Part shown: piece by piece, positions 13,210 through 13,320 of the stretch | Layout: every line of letters starts with the position of its first letter | Position numbering within the stretch: the stretch's first letter is position 1 | Source: Escherichia phage alia | Length of the DNA stretch: 64,000 bases | Sequence record: NC_052655.1 | Direction: 5' to 3' (one strand) | The notes under the pieces: model-generated | The model's input: the letters and a program-made list of their open reading frames with translations, nothing else | What the model was told of the DNA's origin: nothing | Database searches by the model: none | Translations under genes and position numbers: made by a program

Positions 13210-13320
13210 TGATAATCATTCTCATTTGTAAATGAGAATCATTATCATTTAATTATGTAAGTGATAATCATTCTCAGTAAGAGAATGAGAATCATTAGCA
13301 AATGAGAATTTTCTCATTTA
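13210..13320. promoter_or_regulatory. cluster of Fur-box-like palindromes
   Basis: Four copies of GATAATCATTCTCATT / AATGAGAATCATTATC in both orientations; 15 of 16 match to Fur box core. Confidence 0.45.

Follow-up and report, generated by a model that had tools for sequence, protein, structure and literature searches.

PhoB and NtcA boxes in cyanophages are familiar cases of lytic phages that carry sites for host global regulators, and Calderwood and Mekalanos reportedly described, in 1987, a Fur site at the stx1 promoter of Shiga-toxin phages. CtrA boxes are on record for alphaproteobacterial phages (PMC9437464), and the injection-stop region of T5 has DnaA boxes (bioRxiv 866236). In Escherichia coli, Fur clusters lie at the cryptic-prophage genes nohA, nohB, ydfK and ynaE (Qin, DLP12, Rac)—the nohA site has been gel-shifted by Fur—and real Fur clusters hold 1–14 matches exactly 3 or 6 bases apart within a length of 19–142 bp (Chen et al., 2007; PMC2189734). 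Here we consider a 64,000-nucleotide stretch of the Escherichia phage alia genome (NC_052655.1; "the window" denotes this whole stretch, with position 1 its first letter), in which strong Fur-like boxes gather in two non-coding regions. We hold with moderate confidence that these boxes are sites for host Fe2+-Fur in two conserved non-coding control regions, and that they have a regulatory role.

By its sequence, the window is assigned to a Justusliebigvirus (phi92-like) genome, i.e., a virulent myophage of the subfamily Stephanstirmvirinae, with genomes of ~146 kb. Both box-bearing parts of the window (12700–14400 and 24100–26000) share 94–98% identity with many Justusliebigvirus Escherichia phages.

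Fur-like boxes and their enrichment over chance

A position weight matrix for Fur was built from 18 E. coli K-12 sites that had been footprinted or gel-shifted, using the coordinates of experimentally supported sites in Chen et al. (2007; PMC2189734), who obtained Fur gel shifts at 150 nM and footprints at 50–400 nM, and sequences taken from NC_000913.3. Aligned by a palindromic one-site-per-sequence procedure, these sites gave 19 columns and 16.4 bits, with a consensus, GATAATGATAATCATTATC, that is the textbook Fur box. Most of the information sits in the A-A-T at columns 4–6 and in the mirror-image columns 14–16. The matrix scores its training sites at 11.9–22.7 bits (leave-one-out median, 17.8 bits), and in a calibration scan of 37 kb of E. 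coli DNA (ent/fep, opp-tonB) all but one of the positions matched at ≥14 bits belonged to known sites (fepD-entS, fepB, entC, oppA). Phage boxes in the two non-coding regions score 16.7–24.9 bits, and the eight box positions have best scores of 17.1–24.9 bits, as compared with the median of 17.8 bits for true sites left out in turn. The variant ATTCTCATT, dominant in the phage boxes, also occurs in the ryhB, fhuA, gpmA, exbB and fepB sites, so the GATAATCATTCTCATT type of phage box is no departure from Fur specificity. The boxes are as follows.

13199–13320: cluster 1 of the Fur-like operators, with two inverted pairs made up of four strong 7-1-7 boxes and a fifth box, promoter-proximal and degenerate
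13205–13229: Box 1, 19-mers at 13205–13223 (16.8 bits) and 13211–13229 (17.1 bits); core TGATAATCATTCTCA at 13210–13224
13228–13252: Box 2, 19-mers at 13228–13246 (23.3 bits) and 13234–13252 (16.7 bits); core TGAGAATCATTATCA at 13233–13247
13257–13281: Box 3, 19-mers at 13257–13275 (18.1 bits) and 13263–13281 (11.6 bits); core TGATAATCATTCTCA at 13262–13276
13281–13305: Box 4, 19-mers at 13281–13299 (21.3 bits) and 13287–13305 (5.9 bits); core TGAGAATCATTAGCA at 13286–13300
13301–13320: degenerate fifth, promoter-proximal box AAATGAGAATTTTCTCATTT, with a 1-bp deletion
24365–24389: Fur-like box, 19-mers of 17.4 and 15.8 bits, ~820 bp before the terminal repeat
24423–24441: Fur-like box, 21.0 bits
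25280–25298: best Fur-like box in the window, GCAAATGATAATCATTATC, 24.9 bits, inside the terminal repeat
25468–25498: three 6-bp-phased Fur-like 19-mers starting at 25468 (13.7 bits), 25474 (20.5 bits) and 25480 (15.5 bits), inside the terminal repeat and followed by CATTGATATTTG

With at most three mismatches, the 19-mer consensus has 5 matches where 0.05 are expected and the 15-mer core has 22 where 4.8 are expected; by matrix score, with expectations drawn from 200 first-order Markov simulations, the window holds 7 sites at ≥18 bits (0.145 expected) and 12 at ≥16 bits (0.73 expected). Ten of these 12 fall in the two non-coding regions, which together measure 3.1 kb with a GC content of 34.8% (37% for the whole window): in descending order, the sites starting at 25280 (24.9 bits), 13228 (23.3), 13281 (21.3), 24423 (21.0), 25474 (20.5), 13257 (18.1), 24365 (17.4), 13211 (17.1), 13205 (16.8) and 13234 (16.7). 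The other 60.9 kb contain 2, which is near chance. An earlier note on this DNA, which proposed that Fur-box-like palindromes cluster here, had named as its check a Fur matrix scored against a background of matched composition, and the outcome is clear: under the local composition of the 3.1 kb, the 10 sites at ≥16 bits compare with 0.068 expected, and the 5 at ≥20 bits with 0.004. AT-richness or chance as the source of the boxes is thus ruled out by the whole-window and the local-composition nulls alike.

The details of that note held up with small corrections. Its four copies within 13210–13320 and its sites near 24367, 24424 and 25464 are present within 1–2 bases of where it had placed them, and the 16 contiguous identities to the Fur consensus are found at 25283–25298, its end coordinate (25299) lying one base too far. 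Clustering in two regions likewise stands, but to call both intergenic is too simple: the first, of 1.5 kb, is a conserved regulatory module that includes a small minus-strand gene, and the second holds the genome ends.

The boxes form a 29-nucleotide repeat family with 69–83% identity. Over 118 bp of cluster 1 (13199–13316), 13 positions score above 0 bits, the strong pairs 6 bp apart and the weak ones 3 bp apart. Judged by such spacing, the architecture of cluster 1 and of 25468–25498 is that of the genuine Fur clusters described by Chen et al. (PMC2189734).

Three direct repeats of 67–75 bp (12968–13187) lie immediately to the left of cluster 1, each with ATTATTTAAAGTTTTT and a small palindrome, TTGAAAATGAAAAGTTCAA; at this place other clades have different repeats with a TTTTCAAAATCGA core.

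The conserved module and the genome ends

Homologous modules were drawn from IMG/VR by two exact patterns. An exact 15-mer scan gave 48 matches, mostly chance occurrences in unrelated GC-rich contigs, with 5 true homologues among them, and a longer pattern gave 15 clean loci. With annotated relatives added (phAPEC8, Klebsiella FBKp34, Salmonella PVP-SE1 and T5-like Gostya9), the alignment comprised 20 loci across Stephanstirmvirinae and Vequintavirinae-type phages, whose hosts include E. coli, Klebsiella, Salmonella and Erwinia. The modules share one order, from left to right: ~70-bp direct repeats, 1–4 Fur-like boxes, nnGAAT, a GC-rich hairpin element, promoter P-B, TCTTTACA-N2-TCTTTACA, a very conserved block, promoter P-A and a small minus-strand gene. 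In the window, the part to the right of the boxes reads as follows.

13321–13326, plus strand: GAGAAT, which resembles a −10 hexamer and immediately follows the proximal box (nnGAAT in all homologues)
13330–13372: GC-rich hairpin-forming element with the conserved loop GGTGTTTGTCTC
13408–13381, minus strand: P-B, a sigma-70-like promoter (−35 TTGCTT at 13408–13403, 16-nucleotide spacer, −10 TATTCT at 13386–13381)
13424–13438, minus strand: GTAAAGAAATGTAAA, a GTAAA-N5-GTAAA direct repeat upstream of P-B, which we take to be of the CpxR type
13453–13535: very conserved non-coding block, CTACCGGCGATC...GTTAGCCCCGCCTTTACGCCGTGGGGGTGGCG
13578–13550, minus strand: P-A, a strong sigma-70 promoter (TTGACA, 17-nucleotide spacer, TATACT)
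13581–13847, minus strand: 88-amino-acid gene, homologue of phi92 gp224, ending at P-A and the only conserved gene inside the module

A promoter-proximal box of 16–22 bits occupies a fixed alignment position in 17 of 19 homologous modules, and to its left the sequences of different clades can no longer be aligned. The conserved positions of the boxes are those that are informative for Fur. In the window and its closest relatives this proximal box has decayed, with four strong boxes just upstream, and it is at the same position that other clades score 16–22 bits.

P-A and P-B keep their hexamers and spacing in 19/19 homologues and vary in the sequence of their spacers, and because of this pattern we read them as real promoters. 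Both are directed at the Fur cluster, P-A reading leftward through the conserved block. Upstream of P-A is an A-tract, and its spacer holds a GC dyad whose sequence differs between clades with the dyad itself kept. On the plus strand, 11 of 19 sequences have a weak promoter candidate (TTGAAT, 18-nucleotide spacer, nnGAAT) that extends across the proximal box, and in a generic promoter scan of the window the best matches over the boxes reach only 9 of 12. If real, this candidate would start at ~13330 and face the P-B start at ~13374; the predicted start of P-A is ~13543.

Neither at gathering nor at E-value thresholds did the window or five relatives yield an Rfam family for the conserved block; no tRNA genes were found, and an origin in the host was rejected, with no match among 5,426 E. 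coli genomes. RNAalifold on 16 homologues returned covariation terms of −0.16 and −0.39 kcal/mol on the two strands and one clean compensated pair. Because covariation is almost nil on both strands, we claim no conserved RNA secondary structure and make no claim about the strand of the block or its nature as RNA or DNA. The conserved element that follows the proximal box was also considered as a structured small RNA under Fur control, comparable to RyhB or PrrF; no canonical terminator was found for it, and the strongest promoters belong to the other strand.

The GTAAA-N5-GTAAA repeat is the sole match in the window, where 0.30 are expected, and so is not significant by count. Of 16 aligned homologues, 15 nevertheless retain both half-sites, and their helical phase relative to P-B survives a 10-bp indel that separates clades. 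We note it as a lead only: the repeat may be a second host-regulator site in this non-coding hub, one for envelope stress.

Just upstream of the module lie a gene for a protein with five CapR-homology repeats and a T5orf172 domain (10819–12216) and one for a NADAR (YbiA-like) protein (12217–12768).

The second region contains the genome ends. The phi92 reference record annotates direct terminal repeats of 343 bp, which map to 25207–25548 of the window at 96.8% identity; the window therefore spans the physical ends of the genome, and the boxes at 25280–25298 and 25468–25498, lying inside the repeat, are present at both ends of each virion DNA. The boxes at 24365 and 24423 precede the right-hand repeat by ~800 bp, and cluster 1 is 11.5 kb from the genome end. 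Phi92 carries the same set of sites in this region, and the terminal-repeat box is conserved in three clades: the box of the 25474 type, preceded by TTGAATG and followed by CATTGATATTTG, is kept in a Klebsiella phage (18.1 bits) and in Phapecoctavirus (24.4 bits), with divergence farther downstream. Here too a −10-like hexamer (25497–25502) directly follows the boxes, and a plus-strand start would be predicted at ~25505.

Other repeats surround these sites. An inverted repeat, GCCACCCTCCAGG (25068–25080) and CCTCCAGGGTGGC (25305–25317), straddles the left boundary of the terminal repeat, and box plus inverted-repeat motif recur as a degenerate duplicate (25046–25081 and 25278–25313). Just before the terminal repeat, 24440–24800 has 22.7% GC, ~30-bp periodic repeats (24557, 24588, 24618) and many CTATCTAAC-like motifs; this could be an origin or packaging region.

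Candidate readers of the boxes

When E. coli Fur was compared by tblastn with 50,697 phage records, no homologue appeared in rV5-, phi92-, PVP-SE1- or T5-like genomes, and homologues were present in a few unrelated phages. The same search rules out a phage-encoded Fur as the binder. In the T5-like phage Gostya9, 2.5 kb of the left terminal repeat hold 9 sites at ≥14 bits (0.10 expected), one of them with the layout of the cluster 1 module, i.e., AAATGAGAATCATTCTCATTT, then GAGAAT, then a GC hairpin. As the same motif thus occurs in two unrelated phage families that have only their host group in common, a host factor is indicated, and Fur is the natural candidate, since the motif matches its specificity and the phages lack a Fur homologue. 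In an informal comparison, none of the motifs of Zur, ArgR, IHF, H-NS and DnaA fits the boxes. We conclude that host Fur is the most likely binder to be predicted from these sequences. The earlier note had put forward host Fur or a phage protein of similar specificity; scores, phasing and conservation fit the former and no phage Fur homologue competes with it, the binding itself being a prediction, as is the coupling of phage gene expression or replication to iron status that the note had suggested.

In the Gostya9 record (6307–8779), Fur-like sites adjoin DnaA boxes at positions 1170–1430 and 1885–1940.

On this favoured reading, each TGAKAAT-N-ATTMTCA unit would be one 7-1-7 Fur dimer site, and overlapping 19-mers 6 bp apart would place dimers on opposite faces of the DNA, spreading over the 118-bp array as dimers do at the host's own Fur clusters. 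Host Fur-Fe2+ probably occupies the arrays in iron-replete cells, and would do so from DNA entry onward. Occupied boxes would occlude the weak plus-strand promoters that they overlap (TTGAAT, 18-nucleotide spacer, nAGAAT; hexamers 13321–13326 and 25497–25502) and may also obstruct transcription arriving from P-A and P-B. Iron starvation would lift this occlusion, such that non-coding transcription of the hub and the terminal repeat would become iron-responsive. A motive for sensing iron may lie in the phage's own di-iron ribonucleotide reductase, which the window encodes along with ThyX and a glutaredoxin.

53849–54934: NrdB, di-iron subunit of ribonucleotide reductase
55298–57559: NrdA, class I ribonucleotide reductase
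49260–49526, minus strand: glutaredoxin gene

Iron supply plausibly limits phage DNA synthesis, which supplies a rationale and is no evidence for a reading by Fur. An isolated Fur-like site, GATAATAAAATTCATTTTC (49506–49524, 21.0 bits), lies at the junction of an RmlD-like gene and the start of the glutaredoxin gene, inside the nucleotide-metabolism cluster with NrdA, NrdB and ThyX. The host nrdHIEF operon is Fur-regulated and the site is notable for that reason, but it may be due to chance, with 0.15 sites at ≥18 bits expected per window.

Several observations weigh against a regulatory role for host Fur at these boxes, and the regulated promoter is its weakest link. No iron-related protein-coding gene lies directly downstream of any cluster. 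P-A and P-B, the promoters with the best support, belong to the opposite strand, and a site 58–175 bp downstream of the P-B start, where the boxes are, is no classical position for a Fur operator. The plus-strand candidate is weak, its −10 lacking the critical −11 A in 7 of 19 homologues, and the proximal box is degenerate in the window (4.8 bits at best). Finally, another protein could read the boxes, since Fur boxes resemble −10 hexamers and AT-rich palindromes.

Such a protein might be encoded by the phage itself, e.g., an early repressor, a replication initiator or the small terminase, with the likeness to Fur convergent. We judge this rather unlikely. The boxes do adjoin the conserved small gene at 13581–13847; many uncharacterised early proteins are encoded nearby, and one protein of phi92, gp005, bears the annotation of a predicted transcription regulator; and the terminal repeat, where a terminase must act, contains two of the boxes. 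The gp224 homologue is conserved at the protein level across clades, with a highly conserved N-terminal half and an N-terminus that is helix-turn-helix-like in appearance. The protein has no Pfam family, no sequence match to solved structures and PHROG matches only to families of unknown function, and its AlphaFold2 model (predicted local distance difference test score, 94) matches no DNA-binding fold. By tblastn, gp224 was not detected in PVP-SE1-type modules, which keep the box, and no T5-like phage was among the matches listed (40 of 150). With no match to a DNA-binding fold, and not being detected in those box-bearing modules, it was rejected as an adjacent helix-turn-helix repressor. More generally, a convergent phage protein sits poorly with a Fur match that equals the best host sites (24.9 bits), 6-bp phasing included, and a motif shared by two unrelated phage families with a common host favours a host factor.

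Host Fur could also bind the boxes for the sake of titration, not local regulation, a reading that we regard as unlikely. In this case, about ten strong sites on each of at least 100 genome copies would soak up Fur (E. coli has ~5,000–10,000 copies per cell), the host's iron uptake and RyhB would be derepressed, and iron would flow to the phage reductase. The principle is that of the Fur titration assay (FURTA). Several features are consistent with it: each genome has numerous strong sites and no open reading frame that they obviously regulate, the box number varies from 1 to 4 between clades as would fit a dosage element, a T5-like phage has a long tandem array, and NrdA and NrdB are phage-encoded. 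The fixed position of the proximal box in 17 of 19 homologues argues instead for a position-dependent role in cis rather than a pure sink; some clades, moreover, retain only one box, and the lytic cycle is short, so that derepression near its end may no longer be of help.

We consider it improbable that the palindromes act in cis as DNA elements, by virtue of their structure or by way of other host proteins (in an origin, in packaging or end processing, or in control of DNA entry) and resemble Fur boxes incidentally. Their setting would suit such elements: it is free of open reading frames and rich in repeats (the three ~70-bp repeats at 12968–13187 and the 22.7% GC periodic repeats at 24440–24800), two boxes lie within the terminal repeat, and strong promoters directed into AT-rich repeats recall transcription-activated origins. 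Davison (bioRxiv 866236) assigns the T5 injection stop signal to a repeat region of this kind. But incidental resemblance leaves unexplained both the base-by-base agreement with the Fur matrix and the conservation of the Fur-informative positions. Nor does GC skew switch at either box region within the window: the plus strand is the gene direction from ~8 kb to ~37.5 kb, and skew tracks gene orientation alone, switching near 8 kb and 37.5 kb. A replication origin inferred from skew was rejected on the same ground, as skew only mirrors gene orientation.

That the boxes have no function, and arose because AT-rich sequence clustered by chance or a single repeat was recently duplicated, is highly improbable: low GC (37% in the window, ~35% in its non-coding parts) and a 29-nucleotide repeat family at 69–83% identity would be in keeping with it, but ten sites stand against 0.068 expected under local composition, and the boxes are conserved across subfamilies with their flanks diverged.

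Significance and comparison with known systems

We tentatively propose a broader picture, in which host Fur operators are retained as arrays, in conserved control DNA free of open reading frames and in terminal repeats, by virulent enterobacterial phages of two groups that are not related to each other: the rV5/phi92/PVP-SE1-like myophages on the one hand and T5-like phages, or at least some of them, on the other. Either the earliest events of infection (non-coding transcription of the hub, possibly DNA entry or end processing) would depend on iron, or the replicating genome would act as a Fur sponge that reprograms iron uptake for the phage reductase; the CpxR-type repeat would add envelope-stress sensing.

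Iron limitation is normal for bacteria in animal hosts, and among the prominent candidates for phage therapy are phages of the phi92 and rV5 types. Should the boxes be bound by host Fur, a phage would develop differently at an iron-starved site of infection than in iron-rich laboratory medium, and efficacy data would have to be read with this in view. Iron would then join the few host signals to which obligately lytic phages have access by way of host transcription factors, and two unannotated regions free of open reading frames and conserved across subfamilies, including the terminal-repeat repeats of T5-like phages, would gain a testable function. Were titration the true role, it would be a new viral route for reprogramming the metal homeostasis of the host, one for which the virus encodes no protein.

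Host transcription-factor sites on phages are already known. For Fur boxes in rV5-, phi92- or T5-like phages we found no prior description, and an incomplete search found no literature linking Fur to these phages and no transcriptome of them. The rV5 genome paper draws a "non-coding" box without comment, and DnaA, IHF and Fis figure in what Davison writes on the T5 repeats, where Fur does not appear (bioRxiv 866236).

Among described systems, E. coli Fur boxes and clusters (ryhB, fhuA, gpmA, entC, fepD-entS; iucA-type arrays; PMC2189734) share with the phage boxes the 19-bp consensus, the 7-1-7/hexamer organisation, the ATTCTCATT variant, the 3- and 6-bp spacing, the cluster lengths and the range of scores. 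Here, by contrast, the boxes are carried by a virulent phage genome as inverted pairs in a non-coding hub and inside a terminal repeat, no gene for iron uptake or storage lies downstream, and the overlapped promoter is uncertain. In every respect that can be judged from sequence, then, the phage boxes resemble Fur operators; it is their context that differs.

Coliphages 186 and P2 have face-to-face promoter switches, which resemble the putative arrangement here in that two promoters converge within a few tens of bp and operators cover one of the two (cf. the candidate plus-strand start at ~13330 and the P-B start at ~13374). They differ in that no lysis-lysogeny switch exists here, the plus-strand promoter is weakly supported and no repressor gene has been identified.

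Prophage Fur sites (stx1, nohA, nohB, ydfK, ynaE) are likewise host Fur operators on phage-derived DNA, but they are single promoter-proximal clusters on integrated elements under the long-term regulation of the host, whereas here multiple clusters are carried by an obligately lytic phage and are conserved in two subfamilies. The boxes also resemble the CtrA, PhoB, NtcA and DnaA sites of lytic phages, conserved motifs of host global regulators in the non-coding control DNA of the phage by which it reads the physiology of its host, with the difference that the predicted regulator here is Fur and the signal would be iron.

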